Source of the DNA: Candidatus Liptonbacteria bacterium
Lineage (GTDB): Bacteria > Patescibacteriota > Minisyncoccia > UBA6257 > JACOXY01
Length of the DNA stretch: 64,000 nt
Direction of reading: 5' to 3'
NCBI GenBank assembly: GCA_016182095.1
Contig: JACOXY010000010.1
Location: 334-64,333, forward strand
Shown here: in pieces, positions 1,146-40,136 of the stretch
How the letters are laid out: the number at the start of each line of letters is the position of its first letter
Numbering within the stretch: the first letter of the stretch is position 1
Notes under the pieces: model-generated
What the model was told of the DNA's origin: nothing
What the model saw: the letters and a program-made list of their open reading frames with translations, nothing else
Database searches by the model: none
Translations under genes and position numbers: made by a program

Positions 1146-2012
1146 TTACCAGCGTCGCCCGTCGCGCGCCCGACTGAAAGATGAGCGCTCGTCACCACCC
1201 CGGTGACCGCGAGGGGTCCTCGGCGTGAACTGCCGAGACTCCTGGCTCTGTCGCTCGTTTGCGATCTGCTCCCGGTACTTGGCTCCTGCCTTGCGCAGGT
1301 TCGCCCGATCACCGGAGAGCTTGCCGACCTGCTGTCGGAGTTCCGGCAGAGCCTTCGCCTTCGCGACCTCCGCCTCCACCTTCCCGACCATCTCGCTCCC
1401 GAGCGACTCGGCGAGCTCGACGTTCACCTCGGAGAGGTGATTCACGACTCGGCCCAGGGCCTCCTCGTAAACCGCCTCGGACTCCACGTAGACCGCGCGG
1501 CAGTCCTGGTCGCCCTCAACGCCGAAAGTGAGCGCGAGGAACTGCTTCTTCACGGCCTCGACCCGCGCCCGGAGATCCGAGAAGTCCAGCCGTTCGTTCC
1601 TCCCCGCCTGGTACTCGACCTCGTAGCTCGCGTCGGAGAGCGCCTTTCCGGCCTCCTTGGCGAAGATCGGTCGCGTTCGGTTGTGTTCGACTGCGTCCTC
1701 GACGAGCGACTTCAGCATCTCGAGCGACGTGATGTCGCCGGGAGTGTAATCTCCGCACTCGCCGCATCGATGCCCGGGCTGCATCGTGCCGGCCTCGATG
1801 CGCAAGCCGATGTTCACGGCGAGCGCCTTGATGCTGGCGTGTCCGTTGACTCCGGACTGCCAGGCCTTCACGATCTCCTCGGAACCGAAGTGGACGTGAA
1901 CGCCCACGATGGTCCCCGTTTTCTCCAATCGCTCCATGGCCCTCTCCTTTACCACGTCGCCGCCGAAATTGGCATCCGTGCTCCTTTGGCTACGTCTTTC
2001 CCTCTTTGCCAT
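1146..2012 (-). CDS. Hypothetical GC-rich protein with a C-terminal coiled-coil; possible phage scaffold/prohead-like protein. True start is MAKRERR, internal to the track ORF 1146..2120.
   Basis: Strong AAGGAGG RBS 9 nt upstream of the internal ATG (~2012). About 62% GC. Coiled-coil-like C-terminal half (VEAEVAKAKALPELRQQVGKL). Sits upstream of the capsid-like ORF on the same strand. Confidence 0.4.
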   Translation of the reverse strand: MAKRERRSQRSTDANFGGDVVKERAMERLEKTGTIVGVHVHFGSEEIVKAWQSGVNGHASIKALAVNIGLRIEAGTMQPGHRCGECGDYTPGDITSLEMLKSLVEDAVEHNRTRPIFAKEAGKALSDASYEVEYQAGRNERLDFSDLRARVEAVKKQFLALTFGVEGDQDCRAVYVESEAVYEEALGRVVNHLSEVNVELAESLGSEMVGKVEAEVAKAKALPELRQQVGKLSGDRANLRKAGAKYREQIANERQSQESRQFTPRTPRGHRGGDERSSFSRARDGRRW

Positions 2013-2172
2013 ATCCTTGGCCTCCTTTTGCCTTGACTGCTTCGCCCACTTACGTGGGGTTAATTCTTCCTTTTTTGTAAGCCAACCCAAAGCACCATGC
2101 CTTAGGGGACCAAACAACAAGCGAAGAATGTTAATGTACTTGCGGACATTATATCATAGAATCGAAATAAAT

Positions 2173-2231: not shown

Positions 2232-2594
2232 TTAGGGCTTAGGGCATAGCTTTATCAAAAGTTTACGCAACATTTTCATAACTTCTATGGTTATAGATTC
2301 AATGCGCTTAAAATCCGGATCACTTAAATATCTTAACTTCTCCGAAACAATAAGTTGCGTTTCCAGCTCGGTAGCAGATGCTAATGCTATCCTTAAAAAT
2401 TGAATGTATTCTTTTAAGTGACCGCGGTTGTAACCTTCAGCTATATTTGATGGAATGGCAACGGCGGCACGTCTCATTTGCGAAGTAATGCCATATATCT
2501 CTTCACGCGGAAAACTTTTAGTAAGTTTGTAAATTTCTATTACAAGATCAACACTTCTTGACCATACTCTAAGTTCTTTATAGGAGCTAAGCAT
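2232..2594 (-). CDS. Four-helix-bundle protein (TIGR02436 / '23S rRNA-intervening-sequence protein' family). True start likely MLSSYKELRVW. The N-terminal extension of the track ORF is encoded by the G-rich repeat.
   Basis: Motifs YKELRVWSRS...IYKLTKSFPREE...QMRRAAVAIPSNIAEG...ELETQLI are typical of this family. Confidence 0.7.
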   Translation of the reverse strand: MLSSYKELRVWSRSVDLVIEIYKLTKSFPREEIYGITSQMRRAAVAIPSNIAEGYNRGHLKEYIQFLRIALASATELETQLIVSEKLRYLSDPDFKRIESITIEVMKMLRKLLIKLCPKP

Positions 2595-2637
2595 ATTATT
2601 TTTTACTATACCCCATACCCCACACCCCAAACCCAGC

Positions 2638-5052: not shown

Positions 5053-8000
5053 ATGAGGGAAAATAAAAATGAAAATAAAATAGTATCCAAAGCGGAACCA
5101 CGCGAAATAACCACTGAACTCAAGGAGTCTTATCTTGATTACGCGATGTCGGTCATAGTTTCGCGCGCCTTGCCGGATGTCCGCGATGGCTTGAAGCCGG
5201 TACACAGAAGAATTTTGTGGGCCATGTGGGACATGGGGCTTACGCATGGAGCTAAATTCAGAAAATCTGCGAATGTCGTTGGATCCGTCCTCGGCGCGTA
5301 TCATCCGCACGGCGACTCATCCGTGTATGACGCAATGGTGCGATTAGCGCAACCCTTTTCCATGCGCTACCCGCTAATCGAGGGGCAGGGTAACTGGGGA
5401 TGTTTTACCAAGGATACCGAAGTAAAACTTGCAGATGGGCGGAACTTGAGCTTTGGAAAACTCATTGAAGAAGATGCTCGAGGAAAAACCAACTATACAT
5501 ACACGGTCAATAGTTTAGGGTTAATATCGGTGGCAAAAATAGAAAAACCAAGAGTTACAAGAGGTGACGCCGAGCTTATTAGAGTTACACTTGATAATGG
5601 CATCGAGATAAAATGCACCCCAGACCATCGCTTTATGTTAAGAGATGGGAATTATAAAGAAGCTCAGTATTTAACGCCACAAGATTCATTAATGCCGCTT
5701 TATGAAAAGTTGTCCGAAAAAACTGATAGATTAAACATATCAAATTTGATTAGATATGAAATTAGAAATAACCACCGCGTTACTAAAATCGAAAAATTAT
5801 CAGAGAAAGAAGACGTTTACGATCTTACGGTCTCTGGTTCGCACAACTTTTCTTTGGGGGCGGGCATTTTCGTACACAACTCGGTCGACGGGGATTCTGC
5901 GGCGGCGATGCGCTATTGCGTTACGGGCGATACTTTAGTTGTTACGGAAAATGGCCTGCAAAAAATTAAAGACATGCCGGGTAAAACTGATAATTTTGAG
6001 CAGGACATAAATATTAAAATCCTTTCTAGGGAGAAAAAAATCCACAAAGCCAGCAAATGGTTTGATAGTGGAGAGCATCCTACTTTAAAAGTAACAACGA
6101 GCCGCGGCCATCAAATAGAAGGATCATATAATCATCCTTTGCTAACTTTAAATAAAAATGGGAGTGGAAAACCAACATTTCAATGGAAAACTCTTGAACA
6201 GCTTACTGCTGGCGACATAGCGGTTCTGGATCGTTCAAGCGATGTTTTGTGGCCGGAAAAAGAAGTTGCTTTAGATAAATTTTATCCAACTGGCCTGCAT
6301 AATAGAACTGAAAGAAAAAAAATGCCGGCGCGCCTTGATGAGAATCTAGCTTTTATAATCGGCGCCATTATAGCAGAGGGGACTACCAGCAGAAAGAAAA
6401 TTGAGTTTTGCAATAGCGACCTAGAATTTGTTGCTGAATTCGAAAAAAGGTGGGCAAAAGTTTTCCCAGACTGCAGAATTCATAAATTTATTAAACAGCC
6501 CTCATCTTATGGGAAGAAAGAATATTGTCGCTTAGAAATTCATTCTCTTTGTGTGGTTTCATTTTTACACAATCTCGGTCTCAATATCGCCACTTCAGCA
6601 TTTAAAACAATCCCGGAACCAATTTTGCAGTCCCCTAAAAATGTAGCGGCGAGTTTTATTAGGGCTTATTTTGAGGGAGACGGCTCAATATCAAACTCTG
6701 ACAAAATGATTGAGCTTAGTAGCTGTTCCATAAGTAAAAAACTAACTGATGAGCTACAGGTTTTGTTGTTAAAATTTGGCATTGCCGCCACCAAAAGGTT
6801 CGATTCTTACAGAAATAACCATAAATTATACATCCGTGGAAGAAAAAATTATTTAGTATTTGCTGAAAATATAGGATTTGTTTCTGCGCGCAAAAATAAT
6901 AGGTTAAAAAACGTTCTAGGACATTATTTAAAGTTTGCCGCCCCGACAGATTTTATTCCTTATCTAACTGGCTATGTAAGAACATTTGTTGCCATGCCAA
7001 GAAGCGCCGATAGGCAGTTTATTCTCAAAAATAACTTTGATCGGTATCATTATTTGGAGAAAAACGGGGGTAGGGTAGCGCTTGCGGTGCAAGCCACGAC
7101 TGGCTTAAATCTTGAACCCCTATTCAGATCTTTTCTCGGCAATAATTATCTTTTTGATCCTGTGGCCAGCATTGAAAAAACGGGGGTCCAAAAAGTTTAT
7201 TCAATCAGGGTGGATAGTGAATGTCATTCCTTTATTGCGAATGGTTTTATTAATCACAATACAGAGTGCCGCCTCTCTAAAATTGCCGAGGAACTTTTGG
7301 GAGACATAGAAAAAGAAACTGTGGAGTGGCAGCCAAACTATGATTCAAGCCGCGAGGAGCCGAAGGTTTTGCCGTCTAAATTTCCCAACTTGCTCGTGAA
7401 CGGCGGTATGGGTATAGCAGTCGGCATGGCGACAAGCATTCCTCCCCATAACTTGAGCGAAGTGGCGGATGCCGCGGTAAAACTTTTGGATCATCCCAAA
7501 ACCAGCATCTCCGAAATAATGGAGATAGTTAAAGGGCCCGACTTCCCAACCGGCGGGATAATTTATGACCGAAAAAACATAAATGAAGCTTATGCCCTAG
7601 GCCGCGGTTCAATAACCACGCGGGCGCTCGCTGAAATTTCCGAAAAAAAGAGCGGCCAATATGTGATCGTCATAACCGAAATTCCATATCAGGTTAATAA
7701 ATCGGAGTTGATAATCAAAATCGCCGAACTAATCCAGGAAAAAAGAATTGAGGGCGTGAGAGACGTGCGCGATGAATCCGATAAAGACGGCCTCCGAATA
7801 GTAATAGAGCTGAAGAGCGACGTCTCGCCGCAAAAAATCCTAAACCAGCTTTACAAAAACACAGATTTACAGAAAGACTTCCACCTTAATTTGATCGCGC
7901 TTCAAGATCGTGGAATTCAGCCCCAGCTTATGTCTTTGAAAGACATGCTGGAGCAGTTTATCGATCACCGCAAAGAAGTTGTGCGCCGCAGAGCGGAGTT

Positions 8001-9351
8001 TGACCTTAAAAAAGCCAAGGAAAGGGCGCATATTTTGGAGGGACTCGCTAAGGCGCTATCGGTTATTGATAAAATAATCGCCACCATCAAGAAGTCGGGC
8101 GACAAAGAAGAGGCGCATAAAAATTTAATCAAGAATTTCAAGCTTACCGACATACAAGCGACGGCTATCCTCGAAATGCGCCTGCAAACTTTGGCGGCCT
8201 TAGAAAGGCAAAAGATTGAGGACGAGCTAAAGGAAAAACTGAAATTAATAAAAGATTTGGAGATATTGCTTAAGAGCCCCGAAAAAATAAAGGGGGTTAT
8301 TAAGGACGAACTCCAAGAAATGCGGGAAAAATTCGGTGACGAAAGAAGAACCAAAGTAGTGTCAGGCGGGCTGAAGGAGTTCAAAGAAGAAGACCTGGTA
8401 CCGGAAGAAGAAACCGTGATAACCCTTTCCGCGGGCGGGTACATAAAGAGAAGCAATCCGGGAGATTTTAAGGTACAAAAGCGGGGCGGCAAAGGGATAA
8501 TAGGAGGCGATGTCGGTGAAGAAGATTTTGTGCGCCACTTTGTGAGCGCCGTAACTCATGACAACATTTTATTCTTTACCACGAGCGGCAAGGTTTTCCA
8601 AACTAAAGTTTATGAAATACCTGCGGCTTCAAGAACATCAAAGGGAAAGGCCATACATAACTTTTTAGAAATCCCCACCTCCGAATATGTAAGCGCTATT
8701 ATTGCATATCCATCCAACACGCAAAATCAAGAAACCGCGGCATCGGGCTTCCTTGTTATGGTCACCGAAGGCGGCGTTATCAAAAAAACCAAAATTGCCG
8801 ACTTTGAAAATGTCAGAAAAAGCGGCATTATCGCCATTAAATTAAGAAGCGGCGACAAACTCAAATGGGTGGGGTTATCTGAAGCCGGGAACGACATTCT
8901 TATCGCCACCATGAACGGCCAGGCGATCAGATTCAAAGAAAAAGATTTGCGCCCCATGGGGAGGGCGGCAAGCGGCGTTACCGCCATAAGGTTAAAAAAG
9001 GGCGATAAAGTAAATGCCATGGAAATAATTAGAGGAGGAAAAGAGACGCGAGAAACACAGCTCCTCGCGGTTATGGCTAACGGTTACGCCAAGCGCACCC
9101 CCTTAAAAGAATATAAGGTGCAAAGGCGGGGCGGCTCCGGGATTAAAACAGCCAAAATAACGGCAAAGACCGGCTCCATAGTGGCGGCAAGAGTTATAAC
9201 CGAGGAAGAAGAACTTCTGGCTCTTTCAACTAAGGGCCAGATAATCAAGACCTTAATCAAGGATGTGCGCATAGCCGGCCGCGCCACGCAAGGAGTTAGA
9301 ATTATGTCGCTTAAAGCCGGAGATAAAGTGGCGGGGATAGTGTGTCTGTAG
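5053..9351 (+). CDS. gyrA: DNA gyrase subunit A, interrupted by two inteins. Extein total is ~824 aa.
   Basis: GyrA motifs are all present: [37 protein letters not shown]|..|[12 protein letters not shown]|..|[13 protein letters not shown], and the C-terminal beta-pinwheel repeats. Confidence 0.9.
5401..5880 (+). other. Mini-intein (160 aa, no endonuclease domain). Inserted between GQGNWG and SVDGD. Starts with Cys, ends His-Asn, with Ser at +1.
   Basis: CFTKDTEV...GIFVHN|S. The flanking exteins reconstitute the conserved GyrA GN(F/W)G-S(V/I)DGD motif. Confidence 0.7.
5917..7260 (+). other. Intein (448 aa) with a LAGLIDADG homing-endonuclease domain, at the canonical GyrA intein site (AAMRY|C...HN|TE). 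It lies only 12 extein residues after intein 1.
   Basis: CVTGDTLV...FINHN|TECR. LAGLIDADG-like blocks [13 protein letters not shown] and [12 protein letters not shown]. Same insertion point as the mycobacterial GyrA intein. Confidence 0.75.
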
Positions 9352-10805: not shown

Positions 10806-11699
10806 ATGAAAAAAACTTATCGCTTTAAATTAGCTCTTATTCTATTGGTTTTGGCAGTCATCCCAATTCTCGCAAACGCCCAATCCATCATAAATCCCGA
10901 CGAGTGTTCAGGAATTTTTGATTTCATCCCGGCCGATAAAGCCAGATACTGCACTCTGTGCGACGGACTGCAAGCGGTAAAAAATGGATTGCTACTGCTT
11001 TTGAAAATTGGTGTGGGGCTCGCCGTGATAATCATTGCTTACGGCGGAGTGCTTATTATGGTTTCGGGCGCAAGTCCCGGCAAATTTGAGCAAGGCAAAA
11101 AAGCGATTATTGGTTCCGTGGTTGGGGTCGCGATCGGCGCTATGGCATGGATCATCATCAATCAAATTTTCTTCATCTTTGTAACGCAAAGCGTAACTCT
11201 GCGTCCCTGGAACGATATCCCCTGTCCCCAAGAACCGCCGAGATTTGGAGCATCATTGGGAGGCACTGGCGGCCCTGGGGGCACTGGCGGCACAGGTGGA
11301 ACAGGCGGTACGGGCGGCACAGGAGTATCTGTAACTGACAACGCCAGAGTAAAAGCTCTATTAGACCCCAGTATTCGATATAACAATAATTCATGCCCAC
11401 CAACCTGTGTGGGGGGATTGCCACAAACCACCATAGATAAGTTAAACACGCTACAGGCGCAGTGCGGGTGCGTTGAAATTACCGGCGGCACAGAACCAGG
11501 CCACGCCTCTCATGGACCAGGCCTTGCTGTCGTTGATATTCGTTACAATCAAAGGGCAATTGATGGTTTGCGAAACATGGGCTACTCCGAAAGCAACTTT
11601 GGAACTGGCTACACCTGTGAACCGGCAGGAGGGAATACTGGCGGAACAAGGGTTCTGTGCAACAGCGGGCGCGCGGATAAAATGCATGTGGAGTTCTAG
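10806..11699 (+). CDS. VirB2/TrbC-like pilin paralog 1: signal peptide, hydrophobic helix pair, GGT-rich linker (GGTGGPGGTGGTGG...) and Cys-rich C-terminal domain.
   Basis: Signal peptide plus LLLLLKIGVGLAVIIIAYGGVLIMVSGASPGKFEQGKKAIIGSVVGVAIGAMAWIIINQIFFIF two-helix hairpin, typical of conjugative-pilin-type subunits. Confidence 0.45.
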   Translation: MKKTYRFKLALILLVLAVIPILANAQSIINPDECSGIFDFIPADKARYCTLCDGLQAVKNGLLLLLKIGVGLAVIIIAYGGVLIMVSGASPGKFEQGKKAIIGSVVGVAIGAMAWIIINQIFFIFVTQSVTLRPWNDIPCPQEPPRFGASLGGTGGPGGTGGTGGTGGTGGTGVSVTDNARVKALLDPSIRYNNNSCPPTCVGGLPQTTIDKLNTLQAQCGCVEITGGTEPGHASHGPGLAVVDIRYNQRAIDGLRNMGYSESNFGTGYTCEPAGGNTGGTRVLCNSGRADKMHVEF

Positions 11700-15493: not shown

Positions 15494-15577
15494 GCTGGGG
15501 TGGCGAAATGGCAGACGCACCAGCTTTAGGAGCTGGCGCCGCAAGGCGTGGAGGTTCAAATCCTCTCCCCAGCACCA
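15494..15577 (+). tRNA. tRNA-Leu (anticodon TAG). Class II tRNA with long variable arm and encoded CCA.
   Basis: Folded by hand: acceptor GCTGGGG/CCCCAGC, D-arm GCG..GG..CGC, anticodon stem CCAGC/GCTGG with loop TTTAGGA, variable arm CGCCGCAAGGCGT, T-arm GGAGG TTCAAAT CCTCT, discriminator A + CCA. Confidence 0.85.
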
Positions 15578-38423: not shown

Positions 38424-40136
38424 ATGGACGAAAAACAAATCAAAAACATCATAGCGCCTTCGGCGATTAAGATTAGCCCCAATAGCGTGAAAATCGGGGA
38501 CAAGTATTTAAAAACCCTGTTTATTTTTTCATTCCCCCGCTATCTTTCTTCGGGCTGGCTGAATCCGATTATAAATTTGCCGGAGCTTTTGGATATGTCT
38601 ATTTTTGTGCATCCGGTTGATACCTCAATTGCCTTGAAAAATTTAATGAAAAAGGCCGCCCAGCTTGAGGCGGAAATAATGGAACACCAAGAAAGTGGAT
38701 TGGTGCGCGATCCAGCGCTAGAAACCGCCTATAAAGACATTGACTCGCTCCGCGATGCCCTACAGCAGGCCAGGGAAAAGCTTTTTAATGTCGGCTTATA
38801 TGTCACAATCTATGCCGACACCGCTGAAAATTTAAACAAGCTGGAAGCAAAGATTACTTCAATGTTTGAGAATAAGCTGGTTTACATTAAAAACGCCGTC
38901 TTTCAGCAAGGCGAGGGCTACACCTCCATTCTGCCTTTGGGCGAAGACAAGTTAAGAATCTACACGCCGTTAAACTCCGGCCCTCTTTCAAGTTTTTTCC
39001 CGTTTATTTCAACGGACCTTACAAGCAATAAAGGCGTAATGTATGGTTTAAACCGCCACAACAGCACGCTCATAATTTTTGACAGGTTTTCTTTAGAGAA
39101 CGCCAACACCGTTATTTTTTCTAAATCCGGCGCGGGAAAATCTTATGCCGCCAAACTTGAAATCTTGAGAATGCTTATGACCGGGGTTGACGTTTTGATT
39201 GTTGATCCGGAAAACGAGTATGAGACGCTCACAAGATCCGTGGGCGGCACGGTGTTTAAAATAGGCCTGCTATCAAAAGACCATATAAACCCCCTGGACA
39301 TCCCGCCAGTGCCCGAAGACGAAAATCCCGGAGAAGTTTTGAAGTCTCACACGCTAAATTTAGCCGGGCTCCTTAAGCTTATGTTAGGCAAAATAAAACC
39401 GGAGGAAGACGCATTGCTAGACCAAGCGATAACCGAAGTTTATGCCGCGAGAGGCATAACGGCCGGTAAAGATTTTGGAGGAATTGAGCCTCCGCGCCTG
39501 CAAGACTTAAGAATAGTTTTGGAAAATATGCAAGGCGGGAGAGATTTAGCCCAGCGCCTCTACAGATTTACCGATGGAAGTTTTGCCGGCTTCGTGAACC
39601 AGCCAACCAATATTAATGTTTCAAATCGCCTTATCGCCTTTTCCATCCGCGATCTGGAGCCGGAATTACGGCCAATTGCCATATATATAATTCTAAACTT
39701 CATTTGGAATATGATCAGATCAAAACTTAAAAAAAGAATTATTGTTTTGGACGAGGCATGGTGGATGATGAAAATAGAGGAAGGAGCGCAATTTCTTTTT
39801 GGACTGGTAAAAAGAGCCAGAAAATATTATCTGGGCGTAACAACCATCACGCAGGACGTGGAAGATTTCATAAATTCTCCGTATGGCAAACCGATTATCA
39901 CCAATTCTTCCCTGCAGTTATTGCTCCAGCAGGCGCCAGCCGCAATAGACGTAGTGGCCAAAACTTTCGCCCTGACAGAAACAGAGAAAAACCTGCTTAT
40001 TGAAGCGGAGGTGGGTCATGGTATATTTTTTGCCGGCCTAAAACACGTCGCCATACAAATTATCCCATCCTTTTTTGAGAATAAAATTATAACCACTAAT
40101 CCCGAGGAAATACTGCAGATGAGGAAAGAAACTTAA
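38424..40136 (+). CDS. virB4: VirB4/TrbE/CagE-family T4SS ATPase, C-terminal (RecA-like) part.
   Basis: Walker A SKSGAGKSY and Walker B IIVLDEAWWMM. Overall pattern matches VirB4 C-terminal domain. Confidence 0.65.
   Translation: MDEKQIKNIIAPSAIKISPNSVKIGDKYLKTLFIFSFPRYLSSGWLNPIINLPELLDMSIFVHPVDTSIALKNLMKKAAQLEAEIMEHQESGLVRDPALETAYKDIDSLRDALQQAREKLFNVGLYVTIYADTAENLNKLEAKITSMFENKLVYIKNAVFQQGEGYTSILPLGEDKLRIYTPLNSGPLSSFFPFISTDLTSNKGVMYGLNRHNSTLIIFDRFSLENANTVIFSKSGAGKSYAAKLEILRMLMTGVDVLIVDPENEYETLTRSVGGTVFKIGLLSKDHINPLDIPPVPEDENPGEVLKSHTLNLAGLLKLMLGKIKPEEDALLDQAITEVYAARGITAGKDFGGIEPPRLQDLRIVLENMQGGRDLAQRLYRFTDGSFAGFVNQPTNINVSNRLIAFSIRDLEPELRPIAIYIILNFIWNMIRSKLKKRIIVLDEAWWMMKIEEGAQFLFGLVKRARKYYLGVTTITQDVEDFINSPYGKPIITNSSLQLLLQQAPAAIDVVAKTFALTETEKNLLIEAEVGHGIFFAGLKHVAIQIIPSFFENKIITTNPEEILQMRKET

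Follow-up and report, generated by a model that had tools for sequence, protein, structure and literature searches.

Is a gyrA gene that is interrupted twice beside its active-site motif the host of two self-splicing inteins, and if so, did the two arrive together or separately? This question is raised by 64,000 nucleotides of contig JACOXY010000010.1 (positions 334 to 64,333, forward strand) from the Candidatus Liptonbacteria assembly GCA_016182095.1, a metagenome-assembled genome (MAG); this whole stretch is referred to below as the window. We identified a single, uninterrupted open reading frame (ORF) at 5053..9351, on the + strand like all gyrA features described here, which encodes 1432 amino acids (aa) plus stop. 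Its deposited product (P0001, 100% identical) is named "hypothetical protein HYT12_01450". The product is very probably a DNA gyrase subunit A (GyrA) precursor that has been independently invaded by two selfish self-splicing inteins, at neighbouring hot-spots around a 12-residue peptide that carries the catalytic tyrosine. We base this reading on domain identities, junction residues, predicted fold, a deletion, an empty-site allele, the distribution of the elements and the low GC content of the inteins, and from these we infer splicing, endonuclease activity and the order of events.

A GyrA precursor with two inteins

The host protein is GyrA, and even in its unspliced form it scores 1077.7 bits against NF004043 (cut-off 902) and 1035.4 bits against TIGR01063 (cut-off 877). 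Pfam models place DNA_topoisoIV and six DNA_gyraseA_C blades (PF03989 x6) on the precursor. The N-extein (5053..5400, aa 1-116, GC 0.506) ends in GQGNWG, and the middle extein (5881..5916, GC 0.667) is a peptide of 12 aa between the two inteins. The C-extein (7261..9348, GC 0.465) begins with TECRLSKI and runs to the protein end, and it contains both the GyrA-box QKRGGKG (8476-8496) and the C-terminal domain of six blades. When both inserts are deleted in silico, an 824-aa GyrA is obtained (116 + 12 + 696 aa) and the AAMRY-TE motif is made whole. From this motif we take the last residue of the middle extein to be the catalytic tyrosine, equivalent to Tyr122 of E. coli. An earlier note on this DNA, made from the letters alone, had delimited two inteins in gyrA and expected a collinear 824-aa protein after their removal. 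Its coordinates were reproduced to the base by ORF translation and motif location, and collinearity is upheld by the NF004043 and TIGR01063 scores above cut-off. A syntenic locus of a relative (L121) is contiguous across both sites.

The first insert, intein 1, is a class-1 mini-intein of 160 aa at 5401..5880 (aa 117-276, GC 0.377) without an endonuclease, and its junction reads GQGNWG|C…FVHN|S (the bar marks the splice point). Cys1 is encoded by a TGT codon at 5401-5403 and is invariant in 39/39 members of its family. Block B (C-T-P-D-H, 5614-5628) contains T73 and H76, and the terminal FVHN (5869-5880) contains H159 and N160, all four of which are invariant in the family; block F (DVYDLTV) lies at 5812-5832 and the +1 Ser at 5881. 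Altogether, intein 1 retains 28/28 invariant family columns, including C1, T73, H76, H159 and N160. It matches the Pfam Intein_splicing model with 78.8 bits (E=4.9e-22, cut-off 35.8) and the NCBIfam models of the N- and C-terminal intein regions (TIGR01445, E=8.5e-14; TIGR01443, E=3e-6), and, among solved structures, it comes closest in sequence to DnaE and DnaB mini-inteins. An AlphaFold2 model built with 38 homologs as input reached a mean predicted local distance difference test score (pLDDT) of 89.2 and a predicted template modelling score (pTM) of 0.82. In a Foldseek search of the PDB with this model, the best 50 matches were all inteins, bacterial intein-like (BIL) domains or Hedgehog HINT domains, led by NpuDnaE 4kl5 (E=3.9e-10, template modelling (TM) scores 0.75/0.85). 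Intein 1 is thus predicted to be a HINT-fold class-1 intein that would splice autocatalytically.

The second insert, intein 2, is a class-1 LAGLIDADG intein of 448 aa at 5917..7260 (aa 289-736, GC 0.380), with the junction AAMRY|C…INHN|T. We located its block B (GSYNHPLL) at 6121-6144, LAGLIDADG motif 1 (…IIAEG, with Glu) at 6346-6384, motif 2 (…FEGDG, with Asp) at 6649-6687, block F at 7192-7233, the terminal FINHN at 7246-7260 and the +1 Thr at 7261. The LAGLIDADG_3 model matches with 75.4 bits (E=4.3e-21) in two stretches nested within the match to Intein_splicing (E=6e-14). In addition, TIGR01445 (E=8.8e-12) and TIGR01443 (E=1.7e-3, 18.6 bits against a cut-off of 15.6) recognise the splicing regions. 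The GyrA_w_intein model NF038098 aligns intein residues 1-448 with its profile positions 117-537 (216 bits), and the best PDB match is the Mycobacterium xenopi (Mxe) GyrA intein 1am2 (E=7e-25), with the N- and C-terminal splicing regions both aligned. Blocks A, B, F and G agree with the consensus of a family of 102 sequences, and both the Glu of motif 1 and the Asp of motif 2, which are conserved in at least 80% of this family, are kept. The reconstructed empty target of intein 2 reads …GCGATGCGCTAT|ACAGAGTGCCGC…. Judging by these residues, intein 2 is probably able to home into empty AAMRY|TE alleles.

These results confirm a 160-aa mini-intein at GQGNWG|S, by profile hidden Markov models (HMMs), junction residues, HINT fold and an empty-site allele, and a 448-aa LAGLIDADG intein at the canonical AAMRY|TE site, by the LAGLIDADG_3, NF038098 and 1am2 matches. 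The Cys1, terminal His-Asn and nucleophilic +1 residue that had been proposed for both inserts are seen at the junctions (+1 Ser and +1 Thr). The earlier note had also named the outcome that would count against it, namely that intein HMMs would fail or that the first insert would prove to be a lineage-specific GyrA loop. Both inserts match intein HMMs, and for intein 1 a lineage-specific loop was rejected, since the HMM matches, the fold prediction, the residues at the junctions and a naturally empty allele all speak against it.

Close relatives and empty sites

The closest relative of the exteins is P0041, which shares about 89% aa identity when inteins are left aside. Its gene lies at L121:2456-6373 (GCA_964616565.1, contig CAZTTN010000002.1) and the locus is syntenic with the window, with an S1 protein, Lactamase_B_3, a small ORF, gyrA, a solute-binding protein and a pilin-like protein. 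In this gyrA, sites 1 and 2 are both naturally empty and the sequence is contiguous; no other finding argues as strongly that both inserts of the window are insertions and not lineage-specific loops. Site 1 is also contiguous in about 80/120 of the best GyrA homologs. The L121 gene has a 467-aa LAGLIDADG intein at a third site, VVGE|C…SHN|CLGKYHPHGD, about 10 residues upstream of the equivalent of the quinolone-resistance Ser83. We also observed that the empty site 2 of L121 reads AAQRY|TE, as opposed to the near-universal AAMRY|TE, and this may be a homing-resistant variant of the target.

The next relative, P0002 (77% extein identity), has an intein at site 2 only. Since the intein content of L121 and P0002 differs, inteins evidently turn over rapidly among close relatives. 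P0002, which lacks intein 1, carries the nearest relative of intein 2 (71% identical). The nearest relative of intein 1 (70% identical) is found in P0003, whose intein 2 is only 52% identical. The two inteins therefore have different closest relatives, which argues for independent arrival. In composition, the inteins (GC 0.377 and 0.380) differ from the N-extein (0.506) and the C-extein (0.465), and GC at third codon positions is 0.36 and 0.33 in the inteins against 0.56 and 0.52 in the exteins. The third-site intein of L121 is likewise AT-richer (GC 0.39 against 0.46). Low GC of the inteins fits horizontally moving elements or relaxed codon selection.

Loss of the endonuclease from intein 1

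We found site 1 to be filled in 39/120 of the best GyrA homologs by one family of inteins, which begin with CFT(K)DTKVKL… and end with …G(I/V)FVHN|S. The modal length of this family is 391 aa, with 22 members at exactly 391 aa and 29 at 390-394 aa. Intein 1 aligns with the 391-aa alleles with one gap only (…LSEKTDRLN / NLIRYEI…) and with 61-70% identity on both flanks, and about 231 aa of the longer alleles are absent from it. The deletion scar covers 16 residues (intein residues 104-119, 5710..5757), and the AlphaFold2 model falls below a pLDDT of 50 only at residues 104-119, which coincide with the scar. No endonuclease domain is nested between blocks B and F of intein 1, this domain being deleted relative to the 391-aa alleles, and intein 1 is therefore a mini-intein and not a mobile large intein.

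The endonuclease of the 391-aa alleles is probably, though not certainly, HNH-like, because their central domain matches PHROG 7545 (HNH endonuclease, E=9e-9) and a HH…N…N…H pattern is visible in the motif RVRHHxDFNKxNNNPxN…H. Among Pfam models, HNH_3 matches the allele only below threshold (E=0.021). Repeated W-x-NPEYR helices come after the HNH-like motif in the long site-1 alleles. Other minis at site 1 measure 139-320 aa, and their deletion end-points differ from each other, so their endonuclease losses are independent. By its alignment, intein 1 is a deletion derivative of a widespread, site-specific intein of about 391 aa with an HNH-like endonuclease, a point that is new relative to the earlier note. 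The pattern of loss at site 1 matches the expectation of the homing cycle, in which the endonuclease decays once it is useless, while the host gene, being essential, keeps the splicing domain under selection (PMC10643990).

Distribution of site 1 and its intein family

We scanned the GTDB species-representative genomes for the junction GQGN(W/F)G|CFT, written as a degenerate DNA pattern, and at least 120 loci carried it. Among the bacterial matches listed are many lineages of the candidate phyla radiation (CPR), Chloroflexota (including the cultured Oscillochloris trichoides DG6), Gammaproteobacteria (Thiocystis minor DSM 178), Omnitrophota, Planctomycetes, Armatimonadota, Acidobacteriota and Elusimicrobiota. 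The archaeal matches listed include Woese-, Pace-, Nano- and Micrarchaeota, Methanoperedens, Methanosarcinales and Bathyarchaeia. The statement that the first site is not the usual gyrA site thus holds in so far as it differs from the mycobacterial site, but the site is a very common one in environmental Bacteria and Archaea, as the count of species representatives attests.

The intein family itself extends beyond gyrA. An exhaustive search with intein 1 returned 2804 clusters at 50% identity with E<=1e-10. A word-indexed homolog search with intein 1 alone gave 21 mostly truncated fragments and showed that GyrB, Toprim and RtcB proteins host related inteins, which means that members of the family have passed from one host gene to another. 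We observed identities of 45-59% to the N-terminal half of intein 1 in P0130, P0131, P0133 (PF00204), P0135 (PF01751) and P0137 (PF01139), and on NF052663, the NCBIfam model of the "intein-containing RtcB family", the window's intein reaches 135 bits. In the group P0142-P0291 the family is matched many times per protein, for example in 8 stretches of P0142 (2039 aa) and 9 stretches of P0150 (3009 aa). By these matches, the group consists of heavily multi-intein metagenome proteins that carry CFT…FVHN inteins.

In the literature, the survey by Novikova et al. (2016, PMC4760082) counts 50 GyrA inteins of bacteria, spread over Actinobacteria, Aquificae, Chloroflexi and Proteobacteria, and site 1 is probably already covered by published surveys. 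Our literature search found no site label GyrA-b for inteins (matches to "gyrA-b" were unrelated), with the site tables of Novikova 2016 lying outside that search. The same search found neither a description by name of a 391-aa GQGN(F/W)G|S GyrA intein family nor a paper on inteins in Parcubacteria.

Occupancy of both sites

Genes sampled by the site-1 junction only are unbiased as to site 2. In the species representatives listed, site 2 was also occupied, by an intein after AAMRY, in 6/96 resolved genes. A pattern spanning both junctions matched 28 metagenome contigs, and both sites were filled in 22 protein clusters among the best 120 GyrA homologs. Double occupancy is therefore a minority state that recurs in many lineages. 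The earlier remark that two inteins this close are uncommon stands as to the minority share and falls short as to the recurrence.

The linker between the inteins measures 12 residues in nearly all double-intein homologs. The single exception is L082, with 13 residues (SIDDPSEFAAMRY); P0066, from the same MAG contig, is the one homolog whose site-1 insert mapped uncleanly. We found all four combinations of full-length and mini inteins at sites 1 and 2. Most alleles are full at both sites and the window is mini plus full. Three metagenome alleles (L124, L125 and L141) combine a full intein of 520 aa with a mini of 269 aa, and L133 has minis of 205 and 270 aa. That intein sites cluster in conserved motifs is well documented (PMC4760082), and so are replication genes with several inteins (PMC10643990), M. 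smegmatis DnaB (PMC6195587) being one case.

Proposed mechanism and alternative explanations

By established intein chemistry, each intein would excise post-translationally through the class-1 pathway. An N-S acyl shift at Cys1 would be followed by trans-esterification onto the +1 Ser (intein 1) or +1 Thr (intein 2), and then by Asn cyclisation at the terminal His-Asn and an O-N shift. In each case this chemistry would draw on Cys1, on the Thr/Ser…His of block B, on the terminal His-Asn and, on the extein side, on the +1 Ser or Thr. In this way the exteins of 116, 12 and 696 aa would be ligated into an active 824-aa GyrA. The catalytic Tyr is the -1 residue of intein 2 and lies on the 12-residue middle piece; therefore no active gyrase is expected until both inteins have left. 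Intein 1 would represent an end-stage of the homing cycle, unable to home by itself after a single clean deletion had removed about 231 aa of its HNH-like domain, and its HINT splicing domain would be kept by selection because gyrA is essential. Intein 2 is plausibly an active homing endonuclease (HEN) because the Glu and Asp of both LAGLIDADG motifs are retained.

Several points weigh against this interpretation. The 16-residue scar loop of intein 1 is predicted to be disordered, so that the splicing competence of the deletion form is a matter of inference, and an inter-domain region is required for splicing in some inteins (PMC10643990). Block B of intein 2 has Ser in place of the textbook Thr (S-Y-N-H), yet Ser is the consensus of its 102-member family. 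Splicing and cleavage are deduced from sequence for an uncultured organism represented by a MAG, and a second, intein-free gyrA or parC in the genome, if any, would relax selection on splicing.

Could the first insert then be a decayed, non-splicing remnant or a lineage-specific loop, so that the gene would be a pseudogene or its product would keep a permanent insertion of 160 aa? The lost endonuclease, the disordered scar and the merely "hypothetical" annotation at NCBI are what such a view would lead one to expect. We nevertheless judge it very improbable, for all splicing blocks and the 28 invariant family positions are intact, a HINT fold is confidently predicted and the ORF is unbroken over 4.3 kb. 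Moreover, only 12 residues separate the insert from the catalytic Tyr, and the motif concerned, which relatives carry unbroken, is unlikely to tolerate a permanent insertion of 160 aa. Independently derived minis of about this size also persist in many lineages, the cultured Thiocystis minor DSM 178 being one of them. Least probable, to the point of being barely credible, is an assembly artefact in which two single-intein alleles of a population were fused into a chimeric contig. The source is indeed a MAG, and the presence of inteins is polymorphic among close relatives. Against this, only 36 bp separate the junctions, so that one short read can reach from intein 1 across the linker into intein 2, and the same arrangement with a 12-residue linker recurs in the 22 protein clusters, 6 species-representative genomes and 28 metagenome contigs.

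A more far-reaching alternative is that the pair is more than two independent parasites, either through co-homing or as a double conditional-splicing gate on gyrase activity; taken together, these ideas have a slight probability in our estimation. In the gate version, two Cys1 inteins flank the 12-residue catalytic-tyrosine peptide, and, as a speculation, Cys1 of intein 1 could be caught in a redox trap by the invariant Cys72 beside block B. In the co-homing version, which we likewise regard as improbable, the mini-intein would spread by co-conversion when the LAGLIDADG enzyme 36 bp away cuts empty alleles, and this neighbour would have permitted or favoured the loss of intein 1's own HNH domain. 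The spacing of 36 bp is in its favour, as it lies well inside typical co-conversion tracts. Two active neighbouring HENs interfere and home poorly, and co-homing of minis without a HEN has been left open (PMC10643990); a co-homing pair would be a natural case of the question left open by Turgeman-Grott et al. (2023).

The counts bear on this directly. In the list of the best 120 homologs, 6/7 cleanly mapped minis adjoin a site-2 intein, but this list is skewed, since its homologs were ranked by score to a query with two inteins, which brings other double-intein proteins to the top. In the species representatives listed, site 2 is empty for 22/25 minis, and an intein at site 2 accompanies 3/25 minis against 3/71 full-length site-1 inteins (Fisher p=0.18). 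Likewise, 22/25 metagenome double alleles with a resolved site 1 carry the full-length intein there and 3 carry minis, a share of minis no higher than in single-intein alleles. The dependence of the mini-intein on its neighbour is thus unsupported by the counts in species representatives and metagenome double alleles, and the different closest relatives of the two inteins (P0003 and P0002) also speak against co-homing. Independent acquisition is the simpler reading for both inteins.

Other features of the window

An ORF of 324 aa rich in charged residues, without a Pfam match, lies at 1146-2120 (-) in a GC-rich block at about 1000-2250 (61-65% GC against a window average of 43.7%), which could be foreign DNA or a compositionally odd gene. 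At 2232-2630 (-), a 132-aa ORF (…ITSQMRRAAVAIPSNIAEGYNR…) resembles, by eye only, the four-helix-bundle "23S rRNA intervening-sequence protein" family. We also noted a pilin-like protein with a (GGT)n / GTGG repeat at 10806-11699 (tandem repeat 11262-11320), whose L121 ortholog has a weak T4SS_pilin match, and a TraG-like P-loop ATPase at 38424-40136. Together, these two look like a Patescibacteria type-IV-secretion or conjugation-like gene set. The Rfam scan of the window returned nothing besides one tRNA gene, at 15494-15574 (+).

Significance

The gyrA gene of the window is an ordinary, previously unannotated example of known mobile-element biology, and current understanding is not overturned. 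For annotation, the "hypothetical" record is a GyrA with two inteins, from which gyrA phylogenomic pipelines and gene callers should remove 608 aa. In gyrA of uncultured Bacteria and Archaea, a stretch of about 50 residues around the quinolone-resistance-determining region and the catalytic-Tyr region holds at least three intein hot-spots. The full and mini combinations at adjacent sites offer natural material for comparative study of the homing cycle and of interaction between neighbouring inteins. In addition, minis of 146-160 aa with Ser+1 could be candidate tools for protein engineering.

Comparison with known systems

In the window, a GyrA intein of mycobacterial type is joined, at a second common gyrA site, by a mini form of a widespread intein whose full-length version carries an HNH-like endonuclease. 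The Mxe GyrA intein (1am2) and the NF038098 family share with intein 2 the GyrA host, the AAMRY|TE site after the catalytic Tyr, Cys1, the terminal HN and the +1 Thr, and the Mle GyrA intein has this insertion point too. However, the Mxe GyrA intein is a natural mini, whereas intein 2 is full length with a LAGLIDADG domain. Unlike mycobacterial GyrA inteins, intein 2 starts block B with Ser instead of Thr and resides in a CPR bacterium, and the whole precursor of the window scores 1169 bits on NF038098, under its cut-off of 1850.

Intein 1 and the GQGN(F/W)G|S family of about 391 aa occupy one insertion site, begin with CFT(K)DT…, end with …G(I/V)FVHN|S and are 61-70% identical over the splicing domain. 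The family has an HNH-like domain and a repeat domain, a region of about 231 aa that is wholly missing from intein 1. The predicted fold of intein 1 superposes on NpuDnaE 4kl5 and Ssp DnaB 1mi8, which belong to the same size class, with TM scores of 0.72-0.85 and E of about 1e-9 to 1e-10. Nevertheless, identity to these two is only 22-25%, their host and site are different, and NpuDnaE is naturally split whereas intein 1 is contiguous.

The closest parallels to the pair as a whole are other replication proteins. M. smegmatis DnaB (DnaBi1/DnaBi2, PMC6195587), T. kodakarensis MCM and the Haloferax MCM-a/MCM-d proteins (PMC10643990) resemble the window in combining a full intein with a HEN and a mini-intein at neighbouring conserved-motif sites of one essential gene of DNA metabolism. 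The window follows the same evolutionary logic of homing cycle and site clustering. The differences are that the window's host is GyrA, that its inteins come from different HEN classes (one HNH-derived, the other LAGLIDADG) and that they are known from sequence alone. Finally, the spacing in the window is 12 residues, and this micro-extein carries a catalytic residue of the enzyme.

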